Shown here piece by piece: positions 3,992 through 19,433 of a DNA stretch of 64,000 nucleotides. The notes under the pieces were generated by a model, which was not told the origin of the DNA, did not search any database, and saw nothing but the letters and a program-made list of their open reading frames with translations. The first letter of the stretch is position 1, and each line of letters opens with the position of its first letter. The position numbers and the translations under genes were made by a program. Location: assembly GCA_964521625.1 (NCBI GenBank), contig CAZFSM010000018.1, positions 10,479 through 74,478 of the forward strand, given 5' to 3'. The DNA comes from an uncultured Veillonellaceae bacterium (GTDB lineage: Bacteria > Bacillota > Negativicutes > UBA1444).

Positions 3992-5200
3992 ATGTTCATG
4001 GATGTAGAAAAAAAGGTAGCGGCAACACCGTTGCTGGACGAACTGGAAAAAGGCGATTGGCCCAGTTTTGTCACCGAAATTAAAAAGGCGGCAAAAACCA
4101 GCAAAATGGCGCAGGGTCTGCTCGAGCAAGTTGAGGCTTCCTACGTTGAAAAAATTGGTCACTGGAAACACGGAGGCATTGTGGGAGTCAAGGGCTACGG
4201 CGGTGGTGTCGTCGGTCGTTATTCCGATGATCCCGAGCGGTTTCCGGACGCGCGCGAATTTCACACGATGCGTGTGAACCAGGTTCCCGGTTTTTTCTAT
4301 ACCAGTGAAAAACTCCGTGCCCTTGCAGATATTTGGGATAAATACGGCAGTGGACTGTACAACATGCATGGCTCAACTGGCGATATCATCCTGCTCGGCA
4401 CAACGACCGAAAATTTACAACCCTGTTTTGATGCCCTGGGCGAGATCGATTTCGACCTCGGCGGATCCGGCGGAGCGTTGCGGACCCTCAGCTGCTGTTG
4501 CGGCCAAGCTCGCTGCGAAAAATCCTGTATTGACGCTATGGATATGATGTATGATCTTACGATGCATTATCAGAATGAAATGCATCGTCCGGCCTGGCCC
4601 TATAAGTTCAAAATCAAGATTTCCGGTTGTCCCAATGACTGCGCGGCTGCTTCGGCCCGCTCCGACATGGCGCTGATTGGTACATGGCGCGATGCGATTC
4701 AGGTAAGTCAGGAAGAAGTGAGAAAATATGTTGCCGATGGAATGAGCATGGTGCATGTCTGCCGCAAATGTCCGACAGAGGCTCTAGATTGGGATGCGAA
4801 AACAGAAACCCTGTCAGTCAAGACCGAAGACTGCGTCCGTTGCATGCATTGCATCAACGTCATGCCAAAAGCCCTGCATATCGGCAAAGAGCGCGGCATC
4901 ACCATCCAGATCGGCGGCAAGGCTCCGGTTGTCAAAGGCGCCATGATCGGCTGGATTCTGGTTCCCTTTATGAAAGCGGAAGCGCCTTACACCGAAATCA
5001 AAGATCTGGTCGAAAAAATCACCGAGTTTTGGGCCGAAAATGGCAAAAATCGCGAGCGACTGGGTGAATTGGTCGAACGTCTCAGTCTGGCCACGTTTCT
5101 CGAAGGAATCGGCCTGAAGCCGCTGCCTCAGATGGTCAGCGCCCCGCGTGCGAATCCTTATATCTTCTGGAAGGAAGAGGAGGTTGTTAAGAATGGCTAG
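3992..5200 (+). CDS. dsrA: Dissimilatory sulfite reductase alpha subunit
   Basis: TPLLDELEKGDWPSFV, HWKHGGIVGVKGYGGGVVGRY, NMHGSTGD, CGQARC...GCPNDC siroheme-FeS motif, CVRCMHCIN. Confidence 0.97.
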   Translation: MFMDVEKKVAATPLLDELEKGDWPSFVTEIKKAAKTSKMAQGLLEQVEASYVEKIGHWKHGGIVGVKGYGGGVVGRYSDDPERFPDAREFHTMRVNQVPGFFYTSEKLRALADIWDKYGSGLYNMHGSTGDIILLGTTTENLQPCFDALGEIDFDLGGSGGALRTLSCCCGQARCEKSCIDAMDMMYDLTMHYQNEMHRPAWPYKFKIKISGCPNDCAAASARSDMALIGTWRDAIQVSQEEVRKYVADGMSMVHVCRKCPTEALDWDAKTETLSVKTEDCVRCMHCINVMPKALHIGKERGITIQIGGKAPVVKGAMIGWILVPFMKAEAPYTEIKDLVEKITEFWAENGKNRERLGELVERLSLATFLEGIGLKPLPQMVSAPRANPYIFWKEEEVVKNG

Positions 5201-6254
5201 AACAGATTTTGGCCCACCCAATTATAAGACGATGCTGCCGCCGATCATCACGCGCAATTACGGCAAGTGGCTCTATCATGAAGTGCCGAAACCAGGCGTA
5301 TTGCGGCACGTCAGCGAATCCGGCGAAGAACTTTTTTCGGTTCGTGTTGCCTCGGCCCGTCTGGTAAGCAGTGATTTTATCCGTGATATTTCCGATATCG
5401 CGGAAAAATATTGCGACGGATTCCTCCGCTTCACAACCCGTAACAATGTGGAGTTTTTGGTTTCAGACAAAGCTAAGCTGGAACCGTTGCTGAAAGAGCT
5501 CGACGACAAAGACTATCTGGTGGGCGGGGTTGGCCTCTCAATCAGCAACATCGTGCATACCCAGGGGTGGATTCACTGTAAGAGCGCCGTGACCGACGCT
5601 TCGGGCATAACCAAAAACATCATGGAAACCATGGTGGATTATTTCACAGGCAAAAAATCCGTACCGTCCCGTTGCCGTATTGCCGTAGCCTGCTGCGTCA
5701 ACATGTGCGGCGCCTGTCACTGTTCGGACATTGCCGTGGTAGGTATCCACCGGACAATTCCCCGCATCAATCATGAGTTGGCGTCTAAGATCTGTGAAAT
5801 CCCCAATACCATCGCATCCTGCCCCACCGGCGCGATCCGACCGAATCCAAAACTAAAGAGTATCGAAATCAATCATGATAAGTGCATGATGTGCGGTAAC
5901 TGTACTGTAGTCTGCCCGGCGATCAAGATCATGGACCCGGAAAATGACGGTGTATCGATCTGGGTCGGCGGCAAAGTGTCCAACGCCCGTTCGAAACCGA
6001 TGTTTTCCCGTCTGGCAATCCCCTTCATCCCCAACAACCCGCCGTTCTGGCCGGAAGTTACCACTGCTGTGACACATCTGGTGGAAGTCTGGGCCAGCAA
6101 TGCGCGCCCGGGCGAACGGATGGGCGAATGGATCGGACGAATCGGTTGGGAACGTTTCTTCGCAATTACCGATCTGCCGTTCACCGACAAGCACCTGGAT
6201 GACTTTACCCACGCCAACACTACGTTCCGTTCTACCACCCAGTTCAAATATTAA
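5193..6254 (+). CDS. dsrB: Dissimilatory sulfite reductase beta subunit (ATG 5193 overlaps dsrA stop)
   Basis: NYGKWLYHE, RFTTRNNVEF, HTQGWIHC, ACCVNMCG, CMMCGNC, GGKVSNAR, ERMGEWIGRIGWERFF; GAGGAGG SD. Confidence 0.97.
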   Translation: MARTDFGPPNYKTMLPPIITRNYGKWLYHEVPKPGVLRHVSESGEELFSVRVASARLVSSDFIRDISDIAEKYCDGFLRFTTRNNVEFLVSDKAKLEPLLKELDDKDYLVGGVGLSISNIVHTQGWIHCKSAVTDASGITKNIMETMVDYFTGKKSVPSRCRIAVACCVNMCGACHCSDIAVVGIHRTIPRINHELASKICEIPNTIASCPTGAIRPNPKLKSIEINHDKCMMCGNCTVVCPAIKIMDPENDGVSIWVGGKVSNARSKPMFSRLAIPFIPNNPPFWPEVTTAVTHLVEVWASNARPGERMGEWIGRIGWERFFAITDLPFTDKHLDDFTHANTTFRSTTQFKY

Positions 6255-6298
6255 TTCCCCGCGCAATGCGCTGAGGATAAACGAGAGGAGATATGTGT

Positions 6299-6616
6299 AT
6301 GTCATTCGTCGAAATCAAAGGACAACAAATCGAATTGGATGAAGACGGCTTCATCGTAGAGCCGGATCTGTGGAGCACGGAAATTGCTGAATATTTTGCA
6401 AAGGAGGAAGAAGTAGAGGAGTTAACCGAACAGCACTGGAAGATCATCAATTATCTAAAGGACTATTTCAAACAGTTCGGTATTGCGCCGATGGTCCGTA
6501 AGGTCTGCAAAGACAACAGCGTGACAATGCAAGAGCTGTATGCCTTGTTTCCGACCGGCCCGGCTAAGGGCGCCTGTAAAATCGCCGGACTGCCCAAACC
6601 AACAGGGTGCGTGTAA
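6299..6616 (+). CDS. dsrC: DsrC sulfur relay protein
   Basis: LDEDGFI, LTEQHWKII, LFPTGPAKGACKIAGLPKPTGCV with both C-terminal cysteines. Confidence 0.97.
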   Translation: MSFVEIKGQQIELDEDGFIVEPDLWSTEIAEYFAKEEEVEELTEQHWKIINYLKDYFKQFGIAPMVRKVCKDNSVTMQELYALFPTGPAKGACKIAGLPKPTGCV

Positions 6617-6694
6617 ACGCACCCTGGAGTTCCTGTGCTGCGCGTTCCCCATCCAATTGAGACGACTCATCAATTTGGAAAGAGGTGAAACAAT

Positions 6695-8182
6695 TTGAGT
6701 ACAGAAAGCAATCCCTCAGTATACCAAAGCAAGGCTATGTTTAAAAGCGAAGACTGGTGGGCAGTATGGCTCGGCCTGTTTATCTTCGCACTCGGTCTAG
6801 GGCCTATTTATGGCATGGATACTTTAGGTTGGCTGGCCAAACATAGTGTTTGGATTGACATCTCAAAAGCTGTCTCTCCGGCGACAAAAAACTATGCCGG
6901 GTTAGGATTCTTTGGCTCTGCCATAGCAACCTGGTTGTTCATGTTGGCCGTTACCACCTTTGGCGCAACAATCATGGGTTCCAAACCGGCTCGTTTTGCC
7001 GGCGGATTTTCCATTATCTACTGGTTGACCTTCATCTGTATCGTGCTCGGCAACAACGCCTATATCGGCGCCACGCCGAACCAACTGAAAGGTTTCAAGA
7101 TTGCCTGGGCACTCAGCTTGGGTGAAATGGGACTGATCTTTGCGATGCTTGTCGGCTTGTACATCGGCAATTTCATGCCTGGGCTGACCAAATATCTGCA
7201 TGACTCTGCCCGGCCGGAATGGTTTATTAAAACCGGCATCGTTATCCTTGGCATGGCGATCGGCATCAAAACCGTCAGCGCCATGGCGCTGGCCGGTACC
7301 GTCATCGTTCGCGGCGTATGTGCCGTGGTCGAGGCGTATCTGATCTACTGGCCGGTTACTTATTTCATCGCCCGCAAATACTTCAAATTCACGCCGGAAT
7401 GGGCCGCACCCCTGGCATCCGGCATCTCGATCTGCGGCGTGTCCGCCGCCATTGCGACCGGCGCCGCTATTCGCGCCCGTCCCCATATTCCGGTCATTCT
7501 CTCCGCCGTTATTATTGTTTTCGTGGCGGTCGAACTACTATTTCTGCCGTTTTTGGCAGCAGGGTTCCTAGTAGGTGAGCCGATGGTCGCCGGGGCCTGG
7601 ATGGGCCTGGCGGTTAAGAGTGACGGTGGGGCCGTCGCCAGCGGCGCGATCACCGATGCTCTCATCCGCTCCAAAGCCGAAGCCACCCTTGGCATCAAGT
7701 ATCAGGAAGGCTGGATGCTGATGGCGGCTACCACGACCAAGCTGTTCATCGATCTGTTCATTGGCGTTTGGGCATTCATTTTGGCAATCATCTGGAGCAT
7801 GTTCCGTCTCGACAGCTGCAACCCAGATAAAACTGCCGGAGAAGCCCGCAAGGTGTCGCCGATGGAAATTTGGAACCGTTTCCCAAAATTCGTGCTTGGC
7901 TTTATGTTCACATTTGCTGTTTTGCTAGTCATGGGCCTGAATAATCCCAAGATTGTCAAACTGGCTGACGAAGGAGCTGGCCAGGCAAATATCCTGCGCA
8001 GCATGTTCTTTGCGCTCTGCTTCTTCTCGATCGGCATCGTGACCAACGTCCGCAAACTTTGGGCGGCGGGCATGAGTCGAATCGTAGGTGTCTACGCGGT
8101 ATGTCTGTTTGGGTTCATCCTGTGGGTCGGGCTGGGGATTTCCTGGCTGTTCTATCACGGCGTTTATCCGCCCCTGATGTAA
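6695..8182 (+). CDS. YeiH/putative sulfate exporter family membrane protein
   Basis: Many TM segments; EDWWAVWLG, PEWFIKTGIVILG, GISICGVSAAIA, RFPKFVLGF; TTG start after GAGGTG. Confidence 0.85.
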   Translation: MSTESNPSVYQSKAMFKSEDWWAVWLGLFIFALGLGPIYGMDTLGWLAKHSVWIDISKAVSPATKNYAGLGFFGSAIATWLFMLAVTTFGATIMGSKPARFAGGFSIIYWLTFICIVLGNNAYIGATPNQLKGFKIAWALSLGEMGLIFAMLVGLYIGNFMPGLTKYLHDSARPEWFIKTGIVILGMAIGIKTVSAMALAGTVIVRGVCAVVEAYLIYWPVTYFIARKYFKFTPEWAAPLASGISICGVSAAIATGAAIRARPHIPVILSAVIIVFVAVELLFLPFLAAGFLVGEPMVAGAWMGLAVKSDGGAVASGAITDALIRSKAEATLGIKYQEGWMLMAATTTKLFIDLFIGVWAFILAIIWSMFRLDSCNPDKTAGEARKVSPMEIWNRFPKFVLGFMFTFAVLLVMGLNNPKIVKLADEGAGQANILRSMFFALCFFSIGIVTNVRKLWAAGMSRIVGVYAVCLFGFILWVGLGISWLFYHGVYPPLM

Positions 8183-8222
8183 TCCAGCAGCAATATTTGC
8201 ATAAAGAAGGAGGCGAGAAGGC

Positions 8223-8393
8223 ATGGCAGAAAACAAATGCTTAGTGGATCCTTCCGTAGAAGATGCGCAAAATGAGATGGAAGAACAATGGTTTCCTCTG
8301 CAGCCGATTGAGATTAAGATGCTTAGTATCACATTCGGTCTCGGGATGGTTCTGTTGGTAGTGTTCTTCTTCGTATTCGGAGTCCACATCTAA
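8223..8393 (+). CDS. 56-aa single-TM microprotein (absent from ORF track)
   Basis: AAGGAGG SD 9 nt before ATG; MAENKCLVDPSVEDAQNEMEEQWFPLQPIEIKMLSITFGLGMVLLVVFFFVFGVHI; acidic N-terminus plus one hydrophobic helix. Confidence 0.8.
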   Translation: MAENKCLVDPSVEDAQNEMEEQWFPLQPIEIKMLSITFGLGMVLLVVFFFVFGVHI

Positions 8394-8417
8394 ACGGTCA
8401 AAAGTTACTGACACCGG

Positions 8418-8453
8418 GGGGAAAAAAATCGTCGCAAGGTGGTTTTCTTCCCC
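8418..8453. terminator. Imperfect hairpin between convergent genes
   Basis: GGGGAAAAAAATC...GGTTTTCTTCCCC; weak U tails. Confidence 0.5.
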
Positions 8454-8468
8454 TGATTTGTAAAGCAA

Positions 8469-9467
8469 TCAAGAACAATTTTGGGAGAACAACTTGGGAC
8501 AGTCAATGCAAAGATCGTCGGGCTGATTGTTGCCAAATGAAGCGCGAAACTGCAGGTACTCATTACTCCACCAAGTTTTATCCAATCCTTCACGGCCCAA
8601 ACTGCCAAAACACCTGCGTTTGCGCCCGGTTGCCAAATCAGGCAGATTGGCGAATACACAGGGGTGAATTCCCCCATCGGCGGCAATGATCAACGCGCGG
8701 TCGACCCGTTCGCTACAGGTCGCGAAATGTTCCTGTGAAGTCGTAGTTTCGGCATCAAAAACCAATAGGGTTCCTGCTGCCGCCAGTCGGGTTTTAATTT
8801 CTGTCATTTTTTCTGTAACAGCAGCCCATTCTGGGCTATTCCGGACAATCACCTGACCTGCCAGCACCGGATGTGGGACATGGTCGAGCGTGCTGACCAC
8901 GATTTCATTCACCGCCAGGCCATCTAACAATTCGGGCAGATCGTCGATTTCGTCCACGCCGCCCTGCAGCAACATATAGGCAATATGAATGGCCGGGCCG
9001 TTTTTTCGGTTATAACCCTTGGCCGCCGCCAATGTCCGGATTCCTAGCAGTACCGCCGCCAGCGGTGCCCCCTGGCGAAACCTGTCGTGCGAAGCGCCGG
9101 CGCCGGTCAGGGAAAAGGCGACCAGATCAATTTCGGAATGAATGATTTTTTCAGCATTGGACTCATTTAGTAGAATACCGTTGGTTGTTGTACCGCAGCG
9201 GCAGCCATGCGCTTTAACCAGTTCGATCAGGTCGAAGAATTGCGGGTTGAGTAAAGGTTCGCCCCAGCCCTGTAGGTGCACGTACGGTACACTGGGCAGG
9301 TGGCGCAATAGTGGGCGCAGTGTCGCTGGTGTCATGTGGATATTGTTCCAACGTTGACCGGCTGTAGTGCGCGGGCAATAAGCGCAAAGGGCATTGCAGA
9401 ACGTGCTGACCTCCAGCTGGATGTGGTCCAGTTCCGGGTAGGGAGCAAACCAATGTTTCCACTGCAT
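8469..9467 (-). CDS. Radical SAM protein with C-terminal SPASM/twitch-like domain
   Basis: CNALCAYC, GWGEPLL, TTNG; C-terminal C...GGIHPC...CIDC; GGGAGG SD 8 nt before ATG 9467. Confidence 0.9.
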   Translation of the reverse strand: MQWKHWFAPYPELDHIQLEVSTFCNALCAYCPRTTAGQRWNNIHMTPATLRPLLRHLPSVPYVHLQGWGEPLLNPQFFDLIELVKAHGCRCGTTTNGILLNESNAEKIIHSEIDLVAFSLTGAGASHDRFRQGAPLAAVLLGIRTLAAAKGYNRKNGPAIHIAYMLLQGGVDEIDDLPELLDGLAVNEIVVSTLDHVPHPVLAGQVIVRNSPEWAAVTEKMTEIKTRLAAAGTLLVFDAETTTSQEHFATCSERVDRALIIAADGGIHPCVFANLPDLATGRKRRCFGSLGREGLDKTWWSNEYLQFRASFGNNQPDDLCIDCPKLFSQNCS

Positions 9468-9546
9468 CAAAGAGGCCTCCCTTATGTTAGCTGTTCCAGT
9501 TTATTGTAACGTATTCTGTCCATTCGCGGGGAAAGAGGAGTGAACC

Positions 9547-10497
9547 ATGAACGCAATCGGTTGGTTTGTCGGCGGTCCTTATTTATACATTTGCCTGCTG
9601 CTGTTTGTTGGGATTACGGCGTGGAAGGTTTATGGCTATGCCACCATGCCCCGCCATTTGCGCTGGGATCTTTACCCACTGCCGCACCGGGTCGGCGGCT
9701 CCAAGTATCAGAAAGTCGATTTTTACAAGCTGAAGCAAAAAACAAGCCTGCTTGATGAATTTAGCTATATGTTCATGGAAATCCTTTTCATCCGCAAGGC
9801 ATTTATTCATAATCCCAAAGTCTGGGCAGGTTCATTTCCCATGCACATGGGGCTTTATCTTTCGATACTGTGGCTGTTTTTGCTCGGGATTGGCATCGTT
9901 GCAGATAAAATGTTTCATTTGCCGGGGGTGCCGGTAAATGGCTGGTTCTGGATTACAGCGTTGTATGTTGTGACAGTCCTGGTTGGCAGCCTGGCCTTGG
10001 TGGCCGGCTTGACCGGCGCCTGTTGGCTGATGGTTCTGCGGCTTACCGACGAGGGGCTGCGCGATATGTCCGACATTCCGGCCTATTTTAATCTCAGCCT
10101 GCTCATCGGCATGTTCGGCTCAGGTCTGGCTGCCTGGTTCTTTGCTGATCCCGACTTTGTATTGCTCAGGGCGCAGCTCGGGTCATTGTTTGTCTTTTCA
10201 CCGACAGTACCCGCGCATTGGCTGATTACACTGGAAATCTTTTTCATGGGGCTATTCCTGGCCTATCTGCCGTTTAGCCGCATGAGTCATTATGCCGCAA
10301 AGTACTTTTTCTACCATGATATCATGTGGGACGATGAGCCGATGAAGGCCGGCAGTTCGCTGGAAAAAAACGTCGTTCACTCGCTTGGCGGCAAACTGTC
10401 CTGGTCTGCCTCCCATATCAAACAGGACCAGTCCTGGCTGGCGCAGGTATCGCCCGAAGAAGTCAAGGCCGGGAAGGAAGGGGCTGAAAAACAATGA
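9547..10497 (+). CDS. NarI/DsrM-like membrane cytochrome b (second copy, DsrM')
   Basis: About five TM helices; HLRWDLYPLPH, FPMHMG, YLPFSRMSH; coupled to a DsrK-like gene. Confidence 0.82.
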   Translation: MNAIGWFVGGPYLYICLLLFVGITAWKVYGYATMPRHLRWDLYPLPHRVGGSKYQKVDFYKLKQKTSLLDEFSYMFMEILFIRKAFIHNPKVWAGSFPMHMGLYLSILWLFLLGIGIVADKMFHLPGVPVNGWFWITALYVVTVLVGSLALVAGLTGACWLMVLRLTDEGLRDMSDIPAYFNLSLLIGMFGSGLAAWFFADPDFVLLRAQLGSLFVFSPTVPAHWLITLEIFFMGLFLAYLPFSRMSHYAAKYFFYHDIMWDDEPMKAGSSLEKNVVHSLGGKLSWSASHIKQDQSWLAQVSPEEVKAGKEGAEKQ

Positions 10498-12098
10498 AGA
10501 AGAAAGTGCTGATCCGCGATTTCGGTCAGGAAACACCAGTGCTGTGTCCGATCGACCCGGCGGACATTCCCCTGCTGCCTAGCGAAGACGCGATTGTTTT
10601 TAAAGATGTGAAACCGGCAATGAAGGAAAAGTACGATTTTTCGCTGGATGGATTCTCGGCGCTCAACTTGCCGATTCCCCAGACGCCGGAGCAAGAGGAA
10701 AAGATTGTCAACGATTTTCTCAAGGGGCTGGAAAAAGTCTTCAGCGAGGAAAATAACTGGGGCTTTTTGCAACCCACTACTCTCAGCACGAACTATTGCG
10801 TGCAATGCAACACTTGCAATGAGGCTTGTCCGGTCTATCCGGAAAGCGGCTATCAGGACATCTACCGGCCAAATTACCGGGCGGAGCTGCTCAGACGGAT
10901 TTATCGCCGCTATTTCACCACGGCAGGCAAATTGCTCGGCAAATGGGCCGGCGCCGATCTGGAACTGAACTGGCGGGTTGTTTACCGGCTGGCGGAACTG
11001 GTGTATCGCTGCAGCCTCTGCCGGCGCTGCGCCCAGACCTGTCCGGTAGGAGTCGACAATGCTTTGATCGCCAGGGAAATCCGCAAACTGTTCAGTCAGG
11101 AGATGGGGATCGCCCCGGAGGCGGTTCATAAGTCGGGCACGGTCAATCATTTGAAAACCGGCTCCACGACGGGGATGGGTACGGCTGCTTTTCTTGATAC
11201 GCTGGAAATGGTGGAAGACATTATCGAAGAAAAAATCGGTCGCCGGATCAATATTCCTGTCGACGTTAAAGGCGCCGACTTCTTGCTGATGCATAATGCC
11301 GGCGAATTTATGGCTTGGCCGGAAAACCCCGCCGCATTTGCGATATTGTTTGATGCTGCCGGGATCAACTGGACTCTGTCCTCGGAAACCATGGGTTATG
11401 AAGGTGTAAACTACGGCGTCTGGTACGATGACGTGCAGTTTTCCAAGATTCTGGTGGCCCAGGTTCAGGCTGCCAAACGGCTCGGTGTTGGCAAGATCGT
11501 CGTTGGTGAATGTGGACATGCAACAAAGGGCACGGTGACGATAGGAGACCGAATCTGTGTTGGCGATCTGGCGATTCCCCGCGAAAGCTGCCTGCCGATT
11601 CTGGCGGAGATTGTCACAAGCAAAAAAATCAAGTTCAACCCCGAACAGAACAATTTTCCGGTCACGATGCACGACCCCTGCAACATGGTCCGCTTGATGG
11701 GCATTATGAAACCGCAATGGACCATTCTGAAGTCGATCGTACCGAAGAAAATGATTTATCCGATGCCCAATGCCGGTGCTGAGAACTACTGCTGCGGCGG
11801 CGGCAGCGGTTTTGCGATCATGAATTCGCAGAACTTCCCGCAGTGGCGAACCCACTTGTCCAGCCGGCGCAAGGCAAGGCAGGTGCTGGAGGCCTTCAAG
11901 GACGTGTTGGATCCGTCGATTCCCAAATACTACTGCGCTCCCTGTTCCAACTGCAAAGGTTCGGCCCGCGATTCGATGATCGAGGCCTTTGGTTTCAAGG
12001 AGAAATACAATATGACTTATGGAGGGCTCGTCGAGCTGATGGTCAACGCCATGCCGGATCTGCCGAAGCCCTACATTTCCTGGGAAGATGAATTCTAA
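10494..12098 (+). CDS. DsrK/HdrD-like Fe-S oxidoreductase (second copy, DsrK')
   Basis: CVQCNTCNEAC, CSLCRRCAQTC, GECGH, HDPCN, CCGGGSG, CAPCSNC (CCG domain). Confidence 0.88.
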   Translation: MKKKVLIRDFGQETPVLCPIDPADIPLLPSEDAIVFKDVKPAMKEKYDFSLDGFSALNLPIPQTPEQEEKIVNDFLKGLEKVFSEENNWGFLQPTTLSTNYCVQCNTCNEACPVYPESGYQDIYRPNYRAELLRRIYRRYFTTAGKLLGKWAGADLELNWRVVYRLAELVYRCSLCRRCAQTCPVGVDNALIAREIRKLFSQEMGIAPEAVHKSGTVNHLKTGSTTGMGTAAFLDTLEMVEDIIEEKIGRRINIPVDVKGADFLLMHNAGEFMAWPENPAAFAILFDAAGINWTLSSETMGYEGVNYGVWYDDVQFSKILVAQVQAAKRLGVGKIVVGECGHATKGTVTIGDRICVGDLAIPRESCLPILAEIVTSKKIKFNPEQNNFPVTMHDPCNMVRLMGIMKPQWTILKSIVPKKMIYPMPNAGAENYCCGGGSGFAIMNSQNFPQWRTHLSSRRKARQVLEAFKDVLDPSIPKYYCAPCSNCKGSARDSMIEAFGFKEKYNMTYGGLVELMVNAMPDLPKPYISWEDEF

Positions 12099-12567
12099 GC
12101 AGCGGGGGGCTTTGTTAAAAGCCTGGTACGACACAACGATGAAAAGTTATTTTCCGGCAACGGACGAAGCATTCCGGCGCAACACCGGTTTTGCCAATCC
12201 GGTCGGGCAGGCCTTTCAGGAATCGATGGCGACGATACTGGACGGTCTGGTGGTAGGAAACTCTGTGTCGGATTATACCGCACCACTGGACCGCATCGTG
12301 CGGGTTCTGGCAGTACAGGGCTTGCCGGCCGGCGTCGCAATCCGGTTTTTGTCGGTGCTGCGCAATCTGCTGGAAAAAAACACGGAAATCGCGGTGGGCG
12401 AAAAAATGCAATGGCTGGCGCGGCTGGATGAACTAGCCGAATTGTCGATCGAAATTTGGTGTGAATGCCGCGAAACCCTTTCCCAACTTCGAATTAGTGA
12501 ACTCAGAAATCGCATCCAACAACTCGAAGCCGGTTCTACGCCCAGACAAAGAGGGGGGAACGACTGA
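12088..12567 (+). CDS. dsrT: DsrT (RsbRD N-terminal-domain protein)
   Basis: FANPVG motif, LDRIVRVLAVQ, CRETLSQLRISEL; lies immediately before dsrK. Confidence 0.85.
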   Translation: MNSKQRGALLKAWYDTTMKSYFPATDEAFRRNTGFANPVGQAFQESMATILDGLVVGNSVSDYTAPLDRIVRVLAVQGLPAGVAIRFLSVLRNLLEKNTEIAVGEKMQWLARLDELAELSIEIWCECRETLSQLRISELRNRIQQLEAGSTPRQRGGND

Positions 12568-14189
12568 TGGCCAAAATAGCAAAACCAGCGGAGTTGCTCA
12601 AAAACACCGGCTATGACAGCATGCCGGCTACCCATTGGATGGATACGCCGGTCGATTTTCGTCCGGGCACCTGGTTGTTTCCCGGTAAAGCGGAAAGCCT
12701 GATCGCTGTCGATCTGCCCAATCCGCGCAAGTGGTCGCCGGAGGACGCCGACTGGAAGCTGCCGCCAAACTGGAAAGAGATCATTCTGGACGGCATGCGG
12801 GAACGGCTGCAGCGGTATCGCTCATTCCGCGTATTCATGGATACCTGCGTGCGCTGCGGCGCCTGCGCTGATAAATGCCATTTTTACCTGGGGTCCGGCG
12901 ATCCGCGCAATATGCCGGTACTCAGGGCCGAACTGCTCCGCTCCGTCTATCTGTATTACTTTACGGCTACCGGTAAGACGCTGGGCCGTTTTGCCGGCGC
13001 CCGCGAGCTGACCGAAGACGTGATCAAGGAATGGTTCTATTATTTCCACCAGTGCACCGAATGTCGCCGCTGCTCCGTTTTCTGCCCTTACGGTATCGAT
13101 ACGGCGGAGATTACGATGATCGGGCGGGAACTCTTGAACCTGATCGGCTGCAATATTGACTGGATCGTTACACCAGTCGCCAACTGCTACATGAAGGGAA
13201 ACCATCTGGGCATCCAGCCGCATGGACTGGTCGACTCGATGGACTTTCTGGTTGAAAACATCCAGGATATCACCGGCGTCAAAATTGAGCCGACCTTCAA
13301 CCGTAAAGGGGCGGAAATCCTTTATGTGCCACCGTCCGGCGACATTTTTGCCGATCCCGGCACTTACTCGCTGATGGGGCAGTTGATGCTGTTCCATGAG
13401 ACCGGTATCGACTATACCCTTAGCACCTATGCTTCCGAGGGCGGCAACTTCGGCAGCTTTACATCGATGGAGATGGCCAAGCGCCTGAATGCCAAAATTT
13501 ACGCCGAGGCCCGGCGTCTAGGCGTGAAGTGGATTCTGGGCGGTGAATGCGGCCACATGTGGCGGGTGATTCACCAGTTCATGGATACGATGAACGGACC
13601 CGGCGATTTCCTGGAGACGCCGGTCAATCCCTTGACAGGGACCCGGTTTGAACATGCCAAGGCTACCGGTATGATTCATGTAACCGAATTCACTGCCGAC
13701 CTGATTCACGAAGGAAAAATCAAACTGGATCCGTCACGCAACGATAATGTGAAGGTCACCTTCCACGATTCCTGCAACCCGTCGAGGGGCATGGGCCTGT
13801 TGGAAGAACCTCGCTATATCCTGAACAAGGTCTGCAATAATTTCTTTGAGATGCCGGAAGAAACGATCCGCGAAAAGACCTTCTGCTGCGGCGGCGGCAG
13901 CGGGCTGGGCGCTGACGAAAACATGGAGATGCGGATGCGCGGCGGCTTGCCGCGGGCCAATGCCGTGCGCTATGTGCATGAAAAATTTGGCGTCAACATG
14001 CTGTCCTGTGTTTGTGCGATTGACCGCGCTACATTGCCCCCCCTGATGCATTATTGGGTACCCAAGGTCGCGGTTTGCGGCGTTCACGAACTGGTTGGCA
14101 ATGCGCTGATTATGAAGGGCGAGATGAAACGGACGCAGAACCTTCGATTTGAAGAACTGCCTGCGGCAAAGGAGGATGGCAATGAATAA
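12567..14189 (+). CDS. dsrK: DsrK catalytic subunit of DsrMKJOP
   Basis: CVRCGACADKC, CTECRRCSVFCPYGIDTAE, GECGHMWR, FHDSCN, CCGGGSGL, CVCAIDR. Confidence 0.94.
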   Translation: MAKIAKPAELLKNTGYDSMPATHWMDTPVDFRPGTWLFPGKAESLIAVDLPNPRKWSPEDADWKLPPNWKEIILDGMRERLQRYRSFRVFMDTCVRCGACADKCHFYLGSGDPRNMPVLRAELLRSVYLYYFTATGKTLGRFAGARELTEDVIKEWFYYFHQCTECRRCSVFCPYGIDTAEITMIGRELLNLIGCNIDWIVTPVANCYMKGNHLGIQPHGLVDSMDFLVENIQDITGVKIEPTFNRKGAEILYVPPSGDIFADPGTYSLMGQLMLFHETGIDYTLSTYASEGGNFGSFTSMEMAKRLNAKIYAEARRLGVKWILGGECGHMWRVIHQFMDTMNGPGDFLETPVNPLTGTRFEHAKATGMIHVTEFTADLIHEGKIKLDPSRNDNVKVTFHDSCNPSRGMGLLEEPRYILNKVCNNFFEMPEETIREKTFCCGGGSGLGADENMEMRMRGGLPRANAVRYVHEKFGVNMLSCVCAIDRATLPPLMHYWVPKVAVCGVHELVGNALIMKGEMKRTQNLRFEELPAAKEDGNE

Positions 14190-14580
14190 GAACCGCCTGG
14201 TAGCGCTGGGATTGATCCTGTTTGTGTTGCTGTTCACCTTTCCGGTGCTGATGAATTTAGGCAAGTCTGCTGCGAAAACACAGCCGCCGTCGCTGTTGCA
14301 GGATGAGAAGGCGATGCAGGAGCTGGCCGACAAACTTGGGGTGAAGAATATCGATGAGTTTCGCGAACGGCACAAGCAGGTTCTGGCCGAATGGAAAGAC
14401 TCGGTGGTGCGGGACGGCAAACGGATCTACGTCACCAAGGACGGGCGCGAAATCCCGATCAGTCTGCAGAACCTGGCCAGTCAGCCACAATACTGCAATG
14501 CCTGCCACGATTATGTCGGTATTGAAAAACCAAACTGCTGGACCTGCCATGTCGAGCCGAAAGGAGGCGACGGTAAATGA
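14182..14580 (+). CDS. dsrJ: DsrJ c-type cytochrome (only two CXXCH motifs)
   Basis: N-terminal TM anchor, WKDSVVRDGKR, SLQN, CNACH and CWTCH; GGAGG SD; sits between dsrK and dsrO. Confidence 0.88.
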   Translation: MNKNRLVALGLILFVLLFTFPVLMNLGKSAAKTQPPSLLQDEKAMQELADKLGVKNIDEFRERHKQVLAEWKDSVVRDGKRIYVTKDGREIPISLQNLASQPQYCNACHDYVGIEKPNCWTCHVEPKGGDGK

Positions 14581-15341
14581 AAAAGCCACTCAACATAAGC
14601 CGTCGGACTCTATTAAAAGCAACTGGCGCCGCAGCCATTGGCCTCATACCGGCCGGTACGCTATTGGTGAGAGCGGCCGGAAAACCGCATCCTAAGGCAC
14701 TGCAGGCCAAGAGTTGGGCGATGGTCATCAATGCGAAACTTTGTCCGCCCGGTTGCCGCATCTGCAGCGAGGCCTGTCACAAGGCCCATAACGTGCCGAA
14801 CATGCCGGACGCCAAACAGGATGTGAAATGGATCTGGCAGGAGTCATACAACTCGGCGTTTCCTTACGAAGCACATTCTTATCCGGATGACGCCAATGCC
14901 AAACGGCCTTATCCAGTATTGTGCAATCATTGTGAAAATCCTTCCTGTGTCCGGGTATGCCCGACCCAGGCGACCTTCAAGCGGCCTGACGGCGTGGTGA
15001 TGATGGATTACCACCGTTGTATCGGTTGCCGTTTCTGTATGGCGGCCTGCCCTTATGGCGCCCGCAGTTTCAACTTCAAGGACCCGCGGCCGCATATTCC
15101 GACGCTAAACCAGGCTTATCCCACCCGAACTCCCGGCGTGGTCGAGAAATGCAATTTCTGCGATGAACGACTGGCGGTCGGGCAGATGCCTGTCTGTATG
15201 GAGGCTTGTCCGGCCAAGGCGATCCTGTTCGGCGACCTGGGCGACCCTGCTTCGACAGTTCGGCAGGCTCTGGCGTCGAACGTGACTTTACAGCGGAAGA
15301 CCAAACTCGGCACCCGGCCGAAGGTCTTCTACATCGTTTGA
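14577..15341 (+). CDS. dsrO: DsrO Tat-exported Fe-S protein
   Basis: SRRTLLK Tat motif; CRICSEAC, CNHCENPSCVRVCP, CIGCRFCMAACPY, KCNFC...CMEACP. Confidence 0.93.
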   Translation: MKKPLNISRRTLLKATGAAAIGLIPAGTLLVRAAGKPHPKALQAKSWAMVINAKLCPPGCRICSEACHKAHNVPNMPDAKQDVKWIWQESYNSAFPYEAHSYPDDANAKRPYPVLCNHCENPSCVRVCPTQATFKRPDGVVMMDYHRCIGCRFCMAACPYGARSFNFKDPRPHIPTLNQAYPTRTPGVVEKCNFCDERLAVGQMPVCMEACPAKAILFGDLGDPASTVRQALASNVTLQRKTKLGTRPKVFYIV

Positions 15342-15357
15342 AGGGAGGAGAACAGCA

Positions 15358-16527
15358 ATGCTTGAACACGCATGGAATGAAACCGGACCCCGGTTCAAGG
15401 CCTGGTTGGCGGCGCTACTGCTCCTGATCGGCGTCGGCGGTTTCTGTTACTCCATCCAGCTCGGAACCGGCCTCGGTGTCACCGGCATGAGCAGGGATGT
15501 ATCCTGGGGGCTATATATAGGCCAATTCACCTTCTTTGTCGGGGTTGCCGCCTCGGCCGTCATGGTCGTTTTGCCCTATTATCTGCATGATGTGAAAGTG
15601 TTCGGTCGCATTACCGTCGTCGGTGAATTTCTGGCGGTTACCGCAGTCATCATGTGCATATTGTTCATCCTGGTTGACCTGGGGATGCCGTCCCGCCTGC
15701 TTAATATCATGCTGTATCCGTCGCCGGGTTCAGTCCTGTTTTGGGACATGGTCGTGCTGAATGGTTATTTTTTCCTCAACCTGTTGACCGGCTGGAAAGT
15801 GCTCGAAGCCGAGTATACCGGAATCAAAGCGCCTGACTGGGTGAAACCGCTCATCTACATCGCGATTCCCTGGGCGTTCAGCATTCACACGGTTACAGCC
15901 TTCATCTATTCGGGGATACCAGGCCGCGACTTCTGGCTGACTGCCCTGACCGCGCCCAAATTCCTCGCTTCGGCGTTTGCCACCGGCCCGGCGCTCCTGA
16001 TCCTGATCAGTCTAGCCCTGCGGCGCTTCACCGGTTTTGATGCCGGACAGGAGGCGATCCGTCGACTGTCAATCATCGTCACCTATGCGATGTCGATTAC
16101 CGTGTTCATGATCATGGCCGAGTTCTTCACCGCCTTTTACAGTCAGGTGCCCAGCCATATGTATGCACTGAAATACTTTTTTGTCGGACTCTATGGCGGC
16201 AATTCGTTTGTCGTGATTTCCTGGATTTTCGCCGGACTTTGCCTGCTGGCGCTGATCCTGCTGCTCAACCCCGCGACCCGTCAGAATGAAAAATGGCTGA
16301 CCATCGCCTGTGCCTCGACATTTATCGCACTGGCGATTGAAAAGGGTATATCTTTCACGGTGGGGGGGTTCATCACCAATCCGTTCGGCCGGGTAACCGA
16401 ATACTGGCCGACAGCAATCGAACTGGGGATTGTCCTTGGCATCTGGGCGCTCGGCGCTTTTCTGCTGAGCCTGTTCTACAGCCTGTTCGTTACCGTCAAA
16501 CGTCGCTCCGAAAGGGGGCTTGCCTGA
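15358..16527 (+). CDS. dsrP: DsrP, NrfD/PsrC-family membrane subunit
   Basis: TGMSRDVSWGLYIGQFTFFVGVAASA, SIHTVTAF, PKFLASAF; about ten TM helices. Confidence 0.93.
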   Translation: MLEHAWNETGPRFKAWLAALLLLIGVGGFCYSIQLGTGLGVTGMSRDVSWGLYIGQFTFFVGVAASAVMVVLPYYLHDVKVFGRITVVGEFLAVTAVIMCILFILVDLGMPSRLLNIMLYPSPGSVLFWDMVVLNGYFFLNLLTGWKVLEAEYTGIKAPDWVKPLIYIAIPWAFSIHTVTAFIYSGIPGRDFWLTALTAPKFLASAFATGPALLILISLALRRFTGFDAGQEAIRRLSIIVTYAMSITVFMIMAEFFTAFYSQVPSHMYALKYFFVGLYGGNSFVVISWIFAGLCLLALILLLNPATRQNEKWLTIACASTFIALAIEKGISFTVGGFITNPFGRVTEYWPTAIELGIVLGIWALGAFLLSLFYSLFVTVKRRSERGLA

Positions 16528-17519
16528 TGCAAATGCTGATTGCGTTCGCCGTGGTCGCGACCATTGCTGCCGCCGGTTATATCGGAGGAGCCATGCCGGG
16601 GCTACAGTTTATCTTCGGCGTTGTTCTGCCACTACTAGCCATCATTGTGTTTTTGGTCGGTTTCGTGCGAAAAATCTGGAACTGGGCCCAAACGCCGGTA
16701 CCTTTCTGTATCGCTACCACTGTTGGTCAGCAAAAATCCCTGCCCTGGATTACCCAGGACAAGGTAGGCAATCCATCGGATACGTCCGGTGTTGTCCGTC
16801 GGATGGCCGGCGAGATTTTCCTGTTTCGCTCGCTGTTCCGCAATGTGAAGGCGGAAATCGGCCCGGACGGCTGGATTGGCTACCAGTTCGAAAAATGGCT
16901 CTGGCTATTTGCCGTTTTGTTTCATTGGTCATTCCTGTTCGTCGTGATCCGCCATCTGCGATTTTTCTTCGTACCGACGCCGGCACTGGTCATGGGGCTG
17001 GAGCATATAGATGGCTTTCTGTTACTCGACCTGCAGCCGCTGTTCTTGTCAGGCATCTTGCTGCTGTTTGGCGTGAGTGCCCTGTACCTGCGCCGGATGG
17101 TGATTCCTCAAGTGCGGTACATCTCTCATGGCATTGATTTTGTACCGCTGTTTCTGATTGGCGGGATTGCCCTTAGCGGGATCCTGCTGCGTTATGTTTG
17201 GCCGACCGACGTTGTGGCCGTAAAGTCGATGACGATGGGCTGGGTTACATTGAATCCTGTATTGCCGGCCAACATCAGCCCACTGTTTTTCGCCCACCTT
17301 ACGCTGGTTTCGGCACTGTTGGCCTGGTTCCCCTTCAGCAAGCTGATGCACATGGGCGGCGTTTTTCTCAGCCCCACCCGCAACCAACGGGCCAATTCAC
17401 GTGAAGTTCGCCATATCAACCCCTGGAACTACCCGGTCCATACCCATACCTATGCAGAGTACGAAGATGAATTCCGTGATAAAATGAAAGGGTGCGGGCT
17501 ACCGGTCGACAAACAGTAA
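16527..17519 (+). CDS. dsrM: DsrM diheme cytochrome b
   Basis: FCIATTVGQQKSLPW, LFHWSFLFVVIRHLR, FAHL...FPFSKLMHMGGVFLSPTRN, RHINPWN; four His ligands. Confidence 0.94.
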   Translation: MQMLIAFAVVATIAAAGYIGGAMPGLQFIFGVVLPLLAIIVFLVGFVRKIWNWAQTPVPFCIATTVGQQKSLPWITQDKVGNPSDTSGVVRRMAGEIFLFRSLFRNVKAEIGPDGWIGYQFEKWLWLFAVLFHWSFLFVVIRHLRFFFVPTPALVMGLEHIDGFLLLDLQPLFLSGILLLFGVSALYLRRMVIPQVRYISHGIDFVPLFLIGGIALSGILLRYVWPTDVVAVKSMTMGWVTLNPVLPANISPLFFAHLTLVSALLAWFPFSKLMHMGGVFLSPTRNQRANSREVRHINPWNYPVHTHTYAEYEDEFRDKMKGCGLPVDKQ

Positions 17520-17549
17520 GTTTGGACAGCCAGGCAAAGCAGTTTGCAT

Positions 17550-17595
17550 GCCGGCGTGCTGTCGGTCGGTGAAATCCGACACGGCAGTCGCCGGC
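17550..17595 (+). other. GC-rich intergenic stem-loop without U tail
   Basis: GCCGGCG-TGCTGT-cg-GTCGG-tgaaat-CCGAC-ACGGCA-gt-CGCCGGC. Confidence 0.55.
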
Positions 17596-17613
17596 TGTTC
17601 GCGTTAAATCGGT

Positions 17614-18603
17614 TTGAGCGGGAAAGAGAGGCGATTTATTGTTATGCTGGCTGCACTGCTTACTATTGGATTGATTCTGGCAGCTGCTCTATTTGGTGGC
17701 ATAGTGCCGCAGGGGCTGCCAGCGGAAGCTTATCTGGACCGCTTTGGCAAATCGTTCGGTCGGATTTTTTTAACGCTGGGTCTGGATGATATTTACCGCA
17801 CCAAGGGCTTTTTGCTATTGGGGCTGCTGTTATTCGCCCAGTTGGCGGTTTGTACCGGCAAACGGATTTCACTGCTGCGCGGCGGCGTTAAAACCTGGCT
17901 GATTGGTTCTGTACTGATGCATGTCGGACTACTGGTTTTTCTGGTTTCCACCGGGATCAGTCTTTGGTGGGGGCACAACATGATGGTGGAGATTCCCGAA
18001 GGGAAAACCATGTCGCTGACCCAGCAGGGAGTTCCCTTTGATATCCGCCTGGACCGATTTACAATCGACTACTATCCGGACAGCCATGCCGTACGGCAGT
18101 ACCGCAGCGACGTGGTACTGACCCGGGCAGGCCAGGAACTGAGACGCGGCAGTCTGGAAGTGAATGAACCGCTCAGCCATGAAGGGGCGAAAATTTTTCA
18201 GATGAGTTATGGCTGGTTGGTAGAAGGGTCGGTGCGACAATTGCCGGACGGCAAAGCAGAACCGTTCTCGCTTGCCAATGGGGGTTGGCTCGATTCGCTT
18301 GGACCGGACAAAGACCGGCTGCGGGCCGTGATTGTAGCAGACCCGGCTAAACAGTCCGCCCGCCCGCCTGAAGTTGTTTTTGTTTTGCTGAAGGAATCGG
18401 GGGCGCGGCAGACGGCGGTTGTTACGCAGGGTGGCTCGATTAAGGACGCGAAAGTGGAAATTCGTTTTGAGCGGCTGCGGCGATATTCTGGCCTGCAGGT
18501 GAAGCAAGATCCCGGTGTAAGCGGCATTTTCGGCGGACTGACGCTGGCGCTGCTCGGGTTATTGCTCCGCTATGCGCCGCTGGGAGGAAACAAAACAGTA
18601 TGA
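17614..18603 (+). CDS. ResB-like cytochrome c biogenesis protein (system II); start uncertain
   Basis: LGLDDIYRT, LMHVGLL, RQYRSDV, LEVNEPL, FQMSYG, YSGLQVKQDPGV. Confidence 0.87.
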   Translation: MSGKERRFIVMLAALLTIGLILAAALFGGIVPQGLPAEAYLDRFGKSFGRIFLTLGLDDIYRTKGFLLLGLLLFAQLAVCTGKRISLLRGGVKTWLIGSVLMHVGLLVFLVSTGISLWWGHNMMVEIPEGKTMSLTQQGVPFDIRLDRFTIDYYPDSHAVRQYRSDVVLTRAGQELRRGSLEVNEPLSHEGAKIFQMSYGWLVEGSVRQLPDGKAEPFSLANGGWLDSLGPDKDRLRAVIVADPAKQSARPPEVVFVLLKESGARQTAVVTQGGSIKDAKVEIRFERLRRYSGLQVKQDPGVSGIFGGLTLALLGLLLRYAPLGGNKTV

Positions 18604-19433
18604 TTCAATGGGAAACGATGTTGTTGCTATTCGTATTTGTGGTCTATGCCGTCGCCACGATCAGCTTTTCACTCCGCTACTGGCTGCGCAACAACCGGCT
18701 GGTTGCAGCGGGAATGTTGATGCTTGGCGGGGCCTTTTCCCTGCACAGCGGGCTGCTGTTGGTGCGCGGGATTGCCGCCGGACGGCTGCCATTCAGCAAT
18801 CTGTATGAATTCACCCTGGTTTTTGCCTGGATCACGACGCTATTGTTTCTTTGCTGCGCGGTCCGGTTTCGCCTGTTAGCGGCAGCGCCGCTGGCAATGT
18901 CGCTGACGACCCTGCTGGTTGGCATTGCCGCAATGATGCCGCGGGATATCCGTCCGCTAATGCCGGCTTTGCGCAGTGGCTGGCTGCAGTCGCATGTGGC
19001 TGCGGGAGTTCTGGCATACGGGGCGCTGGCTGTTTCCGCCGTGCTTGCTGTTGTCCTGTTGACCCGGGCGGAGCAGCAGGAAGCAACCGACTCTGCTGAC
19101 TGGCTGGAAAAATATTGGCGGATGCCATCGGTGGCGGAGTTGGAACGCTACGTTCATGGACTGATTCTGTTCGGATTTTTCTTTCTGTCGGTGCTGCTGG
19201 TGACAGGAGCCGTGTGGGCCGAGGAAACATGGGGGCGCTGGTGGGGCTGGGACCCCAAAGAAATCTGGGCGCTGATCACCTGGCTGATTTATCTCGTCTA
19301 TTTGCATGGCCGCAGCCGGTTAGGCTGGACCGGACAGGCAACCGCCTGGTTCTCGGCATTCGGTTTTATTGCGGTGATGTTCACTTTGTTTGGTGTCACC
19401 TATCTGTTACCGGGGTTGCACAGCTATAAATAA
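18600..19433 (+). CDS. ccsA: Cytochrome c biogenesis protein CcsA/ResC
   Basis: PFSNLYE, PALRSGWLQSH, WWD motif GAVWAEETWGRWWGWDPKEIW, YLH, GLHSY. Confidence 0.94.
   Translation: MIQWETMLLLFVFVVYAVATISFSLRYWLRNNRLVAAGMLMLGGAFSLHSGLLLVRGIAAGRLPFSNLYEFTLVFAWITTLLFLCCAVRFRLLAAAPLAMSLTTLLVGIAAMMPRDIRPLMPALRSGWLQSHVAAGVLAYGALAVSAVLAVVLLTRAEQQEATDSADWLEKYWRMPSVAELERYVHGLILFGFFFLSVLLVTGAVWAEETWGRWWGWDPKEIWALITWLIYLVYLHGRSRLGWTGQATAWFSAFGFIAVMFTLFGVTYLLPGLHSYK

Follow-up and report, generated by a model that had tools for sequence, protein, structure and literature searches.

The window, i.e. the whole stretch of 64 000 nucleotides that was analysed, carries a dsr gene cluster in which the genes of the DsrMKJOP complex lie in the order dsrT-K-J-O-P-M-resB-ccsA (Table 1). 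All five DsrMKJOP genes are intact, and DsrK, DsrO, DsrP and DsrM each score above the cut-off of their own profile. According to the accessible part of the supplement to PMC10504309, a DsrT gene is found ahead of dsrK/dsrM in related clusters. The dsr cluster is interrupted by a radical SAM gene at 8469-9470 on the reverse strand, the best match of which, under the cut-off, is a tungsten-cofactor oxidoreductase maturase.

Table 1. Genes, motifs and residues of the dsr cluster, in window coordinates
Feature	Position	Strand	Evidence or remark
dsrA, dsrB, dsrC of the same cluster	3992..6616	+	Profiles for dsrB and dsrC; dsrA found separately
Second, divergent dsrM-dsrK pair, upstream of dsrJ	9547..12098	+	DsrM 38 bits, DsrK 309 bits, both under cut-off
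dsrT-like gene, RsbRD_N domain	12088..12567	+	PF14361, E 1e-4, just under cut-off
dsrK, DsrMKJOP type; overlaps dsrJ start	12567..14189	+	NF045796, 726.8 bits
dsrJ orthologue, diheme form, 132 aa	14182..14580	+	NF038038 profile, alignment; single copy in genome
N-terminal hydrophobic helix, residues 3-25, predicted membrane anchor	14188..14256	+	Sequence, predicted model
Gly53, replacing axial-ligand Cys of triheme DsrJ	14338..14340	+	Alignment; Gly in 25/25 lineage sequences
Phe60, replacing conserved Met	14359..14361	+	Phe/Tyr in 25/25 lineage sequences
His64, invariant; putative distal ligand for one remaining heme	14371..14373	+	Alignments
Leu98-Ala99 junction, where a five-residue deletion removed the first CxxCH	14473..14478	+	Alignments
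CNACH, family heme-binding motif 2	14494..14508	+	Translation, alignment
CWTCH, family heme-binding motif 3	14536..14550	+	Translation, alignment
dsrO, 16 Cys, TAT signal	14577..15341	+	Profile 307.6 bits; dsrJ end overlaps its start
DsrO His146	15012-15014	+	With Arg152, putative equivalents of A. fulgidus His148/Arg154
dsrP; Asp107 and Phe128 putatively equivalent to quinol-site Asp107 and Phe127	15358..16527	+	Profile 418.9 bits
dsrM, DsrM-2 type	16527..17519	+	Profile 462.4 bits
resB and ccsA/ccsB, system II cytochrome c maturation	17614..19433	+	Profiles

The diheme DsrJ protein and its partner subunits

The whole translation of dsrJ contains four Cys residues, all of which lie inside CNACH (residues 105-109) and CWTCH (residues 119-123), as the original prediction had stated; the SLQN-LASQPQY and FRERHK sequences that it quoted also read as claimed. 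The sole NCBIfam match of the gene is NF038038 (DsrJ), matched over the full profile with 94.4 bits against a cut-off of 100; two relatives from the lineage score 89 and 94 bits, and a Pfam search gave no family above its cut-off. Since this Negativicutes diheme form falls below the NCBIfam cut-off, annotation pipelines may call dsrJ missing. When aligned with the nearest triheme relatives, the first CxxCH corresponds to a clean five-residue gap, Gly53 stands in place of the conserved Cys, Phe60 in place of the Met that precedes the conserved His by four residues and Lys65 in place of the Met after that His. The axial Cys lies 11 residues before the His in 110 of the 122 representatives with at least three motifs, and Gly53 occupies this position. 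His64 and Trp71 are invariant in the lineage alignment, and Arg77 is nearly so. The Cys/Met axial-ligand segment had been predicted to be lost; instead, it is substituted, aligning with triheme DsrJ without a gap around the invariant His64, and the loss of the first Met is specific to the lineage.

In the AlphaFold2 model (mean pLDDT of 85, compared with 90.5 for a triheme relative), the anchor (helix 3-25), the long helix 57-78 and the hairpin of the triheme relative are retained, while the region of the Cys loop is modelled as a longer helix (H42-52, compared with H42-45 in the triheme relative). Searches of the PDB by sequence and by fold matched no DsrJ or DsrK structure. No second, triheme dsrJ was found in the genome, the weak second match covering 35 positions with an E value of 0.04.

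Judged by descent and position, the gene is a dsrJ orthologue, and its diheme product probably works like DsrJ. With the canonical triheme protein (NF038038, and as described in the accessible text of 10.64898/2026.08.25.746951 and PMC10861901) it shares the N-terminal anchor, the His64-Trp71-Arg77 helix, motifs 2 and 3, the location between dsrK and dsrO, partners that retain their key residues and a position nested in the DsrJ tree, where its neighbour is a triheme Negativicutes sequence. It differs in that it has two rather than three CxxCH motifs, lacks the axial Cys and scores below the NF038038 cut-off, and on these three sequence features it is classed as a diheme variant; around the His, it also differs in the replacement of Met by Phe and of Met by Lys/Arg.

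The cryo-EM structure of DsrMKJOP from A. fulgidus, as presented in the accessible part of a preprint (10.64898/2026.08.25.746951), has a DsrJ with two bis-His hemes and one Cys/His heme, one of the heme ligands being His148 of DsrO; the His/Met heme assumed in the original prediction finds no counterpart in this structure. Residues of DsrO, DsrP and DsrM were equated with those of A. fulgidus from their numbering and spacing. DsrO His146 lies six residues before Arg152, the same spacing as that of His148 and Arg154, and is invariant in all 58 aligned DsrO sequences, including those of all ten diheme operons; three divergent DsrO loci, one of which sits in the 58-sequence alignment, lack the His/Arg pattern. 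In DsrM, the four putative heme His residues (His133, His143, His257 and His275), Arg142 and Arg145 are invariant in all 24 aligned sequences, and Arg142 and Arg145 may correspond to the pair of conserved arginines that the preprint describes at the blocked quinol site. With the DsrP quinol-site residues and these DsrM-2 arginines kept, DsrM shows no visible return to an open quinol site.

The second DsrM (9547-10497) has one His pair left (His100 and His257); both of the outer-heme His residues are replaced, one of them by Glu. The outer-heme His pair is likewise missing from the second DsrM in L006, in L007 and in the triheme-DsrJ locus L118, and DsrM paralogues of the Desulfosporosinus type in L197 and L199 retain one of the two outer-heme His residues. 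Judging from these residues, the second divergent DsrM is possibly a one-heme DsrM.

Searches of this genome, which is rated 100% complete, gave no Sat match, no AprA over the cut-off and no DsrD match, so that the pathway here would serve sulfite. Two PhsA-like molybdoenzyme genes are present, at L201:4436-6664 (-) and L202:3555-5762 (+), with thiosulfate reductase PhsA as the best match, under the cut-off; downstream of the L202 gene come an Fe-S gene and one for a NiFeSe-like hydrogenase small subunit. From their sequences, these molybdoenzymes could supply sulfite in this organism.

Relatives, genomes and selection

A sequence search with the diheme DsrJ gave 29 matches, comprising 25 full-length sequences (67-96% identical) and four fragments. 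Motif 1 and the Cys are absent from all 25 full-length relatives, none of which has three motifs, and motifs 2 and 3 are both present in 24 of them, the remaining one having CxxCQ at motif 2. At the sequence level, the predicted coordinated loss giving a diheme DsrJ is upheld. According to their records, the nearest loci come from Negativicutes, Veillonellaceae and Sporomusaceae. Within the family, dsrJ occurs in six of 13 genomes (this genome and five others) and is diheme in all of them; dsrA also occurs in six of the 13, five of which are shared with the dsrJ-bearing set. The dsr cluster (3992-19433) is patchy within the genus, with dsrJ in four and dsrA in four of 11 other genomes, and one 99% complete genome of the genus gave no dsr cluster match.

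Run X6, from a separate study, gave a contig over 14295-14544 that has 15 substitutions and is gap-free across the deletion site; near-identical sequencing runs, from which this DNA may itself derive, were left out as independent evidence. The dN/dS of dsrJ is 0.028 (Nei-Gojobori, six operons, with ten of 15 pairs usable and the rest saturated), and the values for its operon partners are 0.020 for dsrK, 0.049 for dsrO, 0.030 for dsrP and 0.067 for dsrM. The diheme dsrJ is under purifying selection. An assembly deletion, the alternative that the original prediction had itself named, or a decaying gene might be suspected from the NF038038 score just below the cut-off (94.4 versus 100), but the 25 full-length relatives, the five other genomes, the gap-free contig across the site and the dN/dS of 0.028 rule this explanation out for practical purposes.

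Co-loss of the first motif and the Cys, and its recurrence

The first census took the best 150 of 329 DsrJ representatives, from which one unrelated protein of 1063 residues was dropped; the 149 examined comprise 19 fragments, five unclassified sequences and 125 complete ones. At least three motifs and the Cys are present in 115 of the complete sequences, seven have three motifs without the Cys (one of these was mis-anchored and dropped, leaving six), three have two motifs without the Cys and none has two motifs with the Cys. The association between motif-1 loss and Cys loss gives a Fisher p value of 2.7e-4 across the 125 representatives, related members of which do not count as independent. 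One of the three two-motif representatives, P0033, is Desor_1700 of Desulfosporosinus orientis DSM 765, and its 113 matches consist of 19 diheme sequences, all without the Cys (15 classed by script and four by eye), 92 triheme sequences with the Cys and two fragments. The 133 distinct DsrJ ORFs from genome loci divide into 119 triheme with the Cys (five classed by eye), two triheme without it, 12 diheme without it and none diheme with it.

Across the 48 diheme sequences compared, from which P0007 was left out, every one lacks the Cys and retains the His together with motifs 2 and 3. The first Met (the Phe60 site) is kept in 23 of 23 dihemes of other lineages and is lost only in the present one, so that Met loss is not part of the pattern; the second Met is lost in this lineage (24/25) and in Desulfosporosinus. 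As read from these sequences, in a census that barely samples oxidative-type and archaeal DsrJ, Cys loss alone occurs, whereas motif-1 loss is never seen without Cys loss. Among the sequences compared, motifs 2 and 3 show no conserved loss, and no diheme DsrJ was found in the 35 genomes read from the Desulfobacterota sample (of 157 with a match among 301 searched).

The census also turned up several other forms. The axial Cys is replaced, e.g. by Ser, Pro or Thr, in triheme DsrJ from P0047, P0085, P0105, P0123, P0146 and P0177 and from loci L032 and L033; by sequence, these are natural counterparts of engineered C45 variants. Motif 1 reads CxxxCH in eight of the 122 complete representatives with at least three motifs (P0045, P0050, P0060, P0161 and P0170 among them), and the motif-1 heme site therefore varies in more than one way. 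A fourth CxxCH is found in the DsrJ-like P0117, P0146 and P0130, which is N-terminal in two of them and in the other lies within a fused C-terminal domain. In the Desulfobacterota sample, one dsrJ (L194/L196, G1013:C61) is split over two reading frames, with the three motifs all in the second frame. Many genomes of genus g97 (family f39; L066, L087-L104 and L119) have several dsrJ-like genes outside dsr operons, one of those of L119 lying near resB/ccsA.

The diheme relatives of P0033 include P0201 (D. meridiei) and P0206 (Desulfosporosinus sp. I2). Two single-contig genomes, G797 (DsrJ 100% identical to P0033) and G793 (92% identical), have one dsrJ each, which is diheme and lies in a T-M-K-J-O-P-C operon with the DsrO His kept; further DsrK-like matches number four in G797 and three in G793, and extra DsrK paralogues are also present in this genome. 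In the accessible part of the PMC10504309 supplement, D. orientis and D. meridiei are both entered with the T-M-K-J-O-P-C operon, D. orientis also with QmoAB, Sat and AprBA. The Desulfosporosinus proteins (P0033, P0201 and P0206), which carry the annotation DsrJ or hypothetical, resemble the present one in the absence of motif 1 and the Cys, in the retained His and motifs 2 and 3 and in lying within a complete dsrMKJOP operon whose DsrO has the His. They differ in their independent origin, in the replacement of the Cys by Ser, in keeping the first Met, in the T-M-K-J-O-P-C order and in passing the NCBIfam cut-off (125-129 bits). The triheme DsrJ of the sister operons of the Desulfosporosinus dihemes (P0032 and P0247; L116, L117 and L120) has a long low-complexity insertion right after motif 1.

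In a tree of DsrK, DsrO, DsrP and DsrM from 20 operons, the six Negativicutes diheme operons stand beside the triheme operon of G052 (support 99), and the four Desulfosporosinus-type diheme operons lie inside the triheme operons of their own family (support 100); a single diheme clade is rejected (AU p 7e-5). The DsrJ tree computed without the trait columns (58 rows), in which the present lineage is nested as sister to L024 (98/84), needs four changes and also rejects one clade (AU p 0.0017). One origin for all dihemes is rejected by both trees. Two further diheme lineages are weak, namely the P0307 type, an orphan outside a dsr operon, and P0034, without known context; joining them with the Desulfosporosinus lineage is not rejected (p 0.26 for the orphan lineage and 0.06 for P0034). 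On the basis of these trees, motif 1 and the Cys have been lost independently in at least two lineages, two origins being the firm ones.

An orphan diheme dsrJ paralogue with the Cys replaced by Asp lies at L113:9039-9428 (-). Close to it, at L113:11080-12322, are a short gene resembling dsrM and a paralogous triheme dsrJ, and no dsrK, dsrO or dsrP was found near the orphan.

Probable electron transfer through a two-heme DsrJ

The literature surveyed describes DsrJ as triheme throughout. The original papers for the His/His, His/Met as well as His/Cys assignment are reportedly those of Grein (2010) and Pires (2006). This older ligation scheme is stated as a proposal in the accessible text of PMC10861901. 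A literature search in which most subscription papers were out of reach gave no report of a diheme DsrJ; the accessible parts of PMC10504309, PMC11492766, PMC8477390 and PMC6372793 do not mention one, and the conservation analysis in the accessible part of the A. fulgidus preprint (10.64898/2026.08.25.746951) covers DsrC, P, O, M and K, not DsrJ. The same preprint text reports that in N. vulgaris deletion of dsrJ abolished growth and that the DsrJ variants C45A, C45H and C45S were unimpaired on sulfate and sulfite. As in these variants, the Cys ligand is absent from the present protein; unlike in the variants, which have all three motifs, the heme attachment site itself is gone. The diheme form had been called a natural test of the His/Cys heme, and as such it is useful, although the normally growing C45 variants have partly pre-empted it. 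In a survey of multiheme cytochromes, loss of an N-terminal heme motif, as seen here, was the commonest event, by deletion or point mutation; in its accessible text, the survey began from PDB structures with at least three hemes and named DsrJ once, as an example of Cys ligation (10.1101/2025.05.29.656830). With the Cys already reported to be dispensable and N-terminal motif loss a known trend, a diheme DsrJ is less surprising; what is new is the loss of an entire heme, the recurrence of this loss and the suggested pairing of the Cys with motif 1.

In the path proposed in the preprint (10.64898/2026.08.25.746951, accessible part), quinol is oxidized at DsrP and the electrons pass along DsrP-DsrO-DsrJ-DsrM-DsrK. 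Each of the three hemes in DsrJ would require a distal ligand, these being the Cys, the long-helix His and the His of DsrO, of which the Cys is the only one gone here. As two motifs and two distal His residues are left, the most economical interpretation places the Cys/His heme on motif 1, which was lost together with the Cys, and His64 and DsrO His146 would cap the two remaining hemes. Electrons are predicted to pass from DsrO through the diheme DsrJ to DsrM in a sulfite-reducing DsrMKJOP complex. We consider it probable, from the residues conserved, that both hemes left have bis-His ligation and continue to pass electrons on from DsrO to DsrM, the Cys/His heme being off the obligatory path or bypassable. 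The presence of a single dsrJ in this genome, in G797 and in G793, the intact operon and the low dN/dS support this two-heme wire. Against it, the pairing of the Cys with motif 1 is deduced from co-loss and the place of the Cys/His heme in the chain is presumed, and the preprint (accessible text) has all cofactors placed for efficient transfer, so that the Cys/His heme could lie in line. With extra DsrK paralogues in this genome and in both Desulfosporosinus genomes, growth on sulfite is not necessarily proof of a working diheme wire.

A different role for the protein would be that of a scaffold between DsrM and DsrO/P in which the wire is broken, with electrons reaching DsrC via the second DsrMK or another route. 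The second dsrM-dsrK pair in the same cluster and the further DsrK-like matches in G797 and G793 are compatible with such a detour, and the lining of the structural menaquinone site in DsrM by DsrJ, described in the accessible part of the preprint (10.64898/2026.08.25.746951), would keep DsrJ under selection. However, the two motifs left are invariant, as are His64 and the DsrO His, the 16 Cys of DsrO and the quinol residues of DsrP are kept, cytochrome c maturation genes lie downstream of the operon, and the local second DsrM, lacking both outer-heme His residues, would make a poor quinol-oxidizing bypass here; we regard the scaffold as unlikely. It appears decidedly unlikely that a heme other than the Cys-ligated one was lost, or that a third heme is still held non-covalently, the ligands having been reshuffled after the loss. 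Such reshuffling is suggested by the derivation of the Cys-motif 1 pairing from co-loss and by the six representatives (among the best 150 of 329) and two genome ORFs that have lost the Cys with all three motifs kept, in which the Cys-ligated heme would tolerate other ligands. However, the His of motif 1 is gone along with its cysteines, so that a third heme would have no ligand; the same rearrangement would have to recur in two to four lineages; and the longer helix modelled in place of the Cys loop fits a filled pocket.

There is very little to favour a repurposing of the complex in the diheme lineages, to another direction or another partner, with the heme loss going with that change. The Sat, AprA and DsrD matches not found in this genome and the reordering of the operon to K-J-O-P-M would be in keeping with it, but the triheme sister operon in G052 has the identical K-J-O-P-M order, D. 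orientis has a diheme DsrJ together with QmoAB, Sat and AprBA (PMC10504309, accessible part), and DsrK scores 727 bits against the DsrK model.

Returning to the two-heme wire, a further step may be proposed tentatively, with slightly less than an even chance of being right: the Cys/His heme would be the motif-1 heme and a side branch, i.e. an optional port or a low-potential spur rather than the link between DsrO and DsrM, and Bacillota would have discarded it on at least two, and perhaps four, occasions; what is left would be a minimal complex with two hemes, the sole DsrMKJOP in sulfate reducers available in culture, e.g. D. orientis and D. meridiei.

In conclusion, the purpose of the rare Cys/His heme of DsrJ has long been debated, and, as the sequences indicate, this heme can be lost in its entirety, more than once and under strong selection, with the rest of the complex conserved. 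The diheme forms predict which heme the Cys caps and would define a minimal electron path in the terminal complex of sulfite/sulfate respiration. Cultured diheme and triheme Desulfosporosinus species allow a direct comparison and, if the Cys/His heme is indeed a side branch, sister species with and without it would show its purpose.
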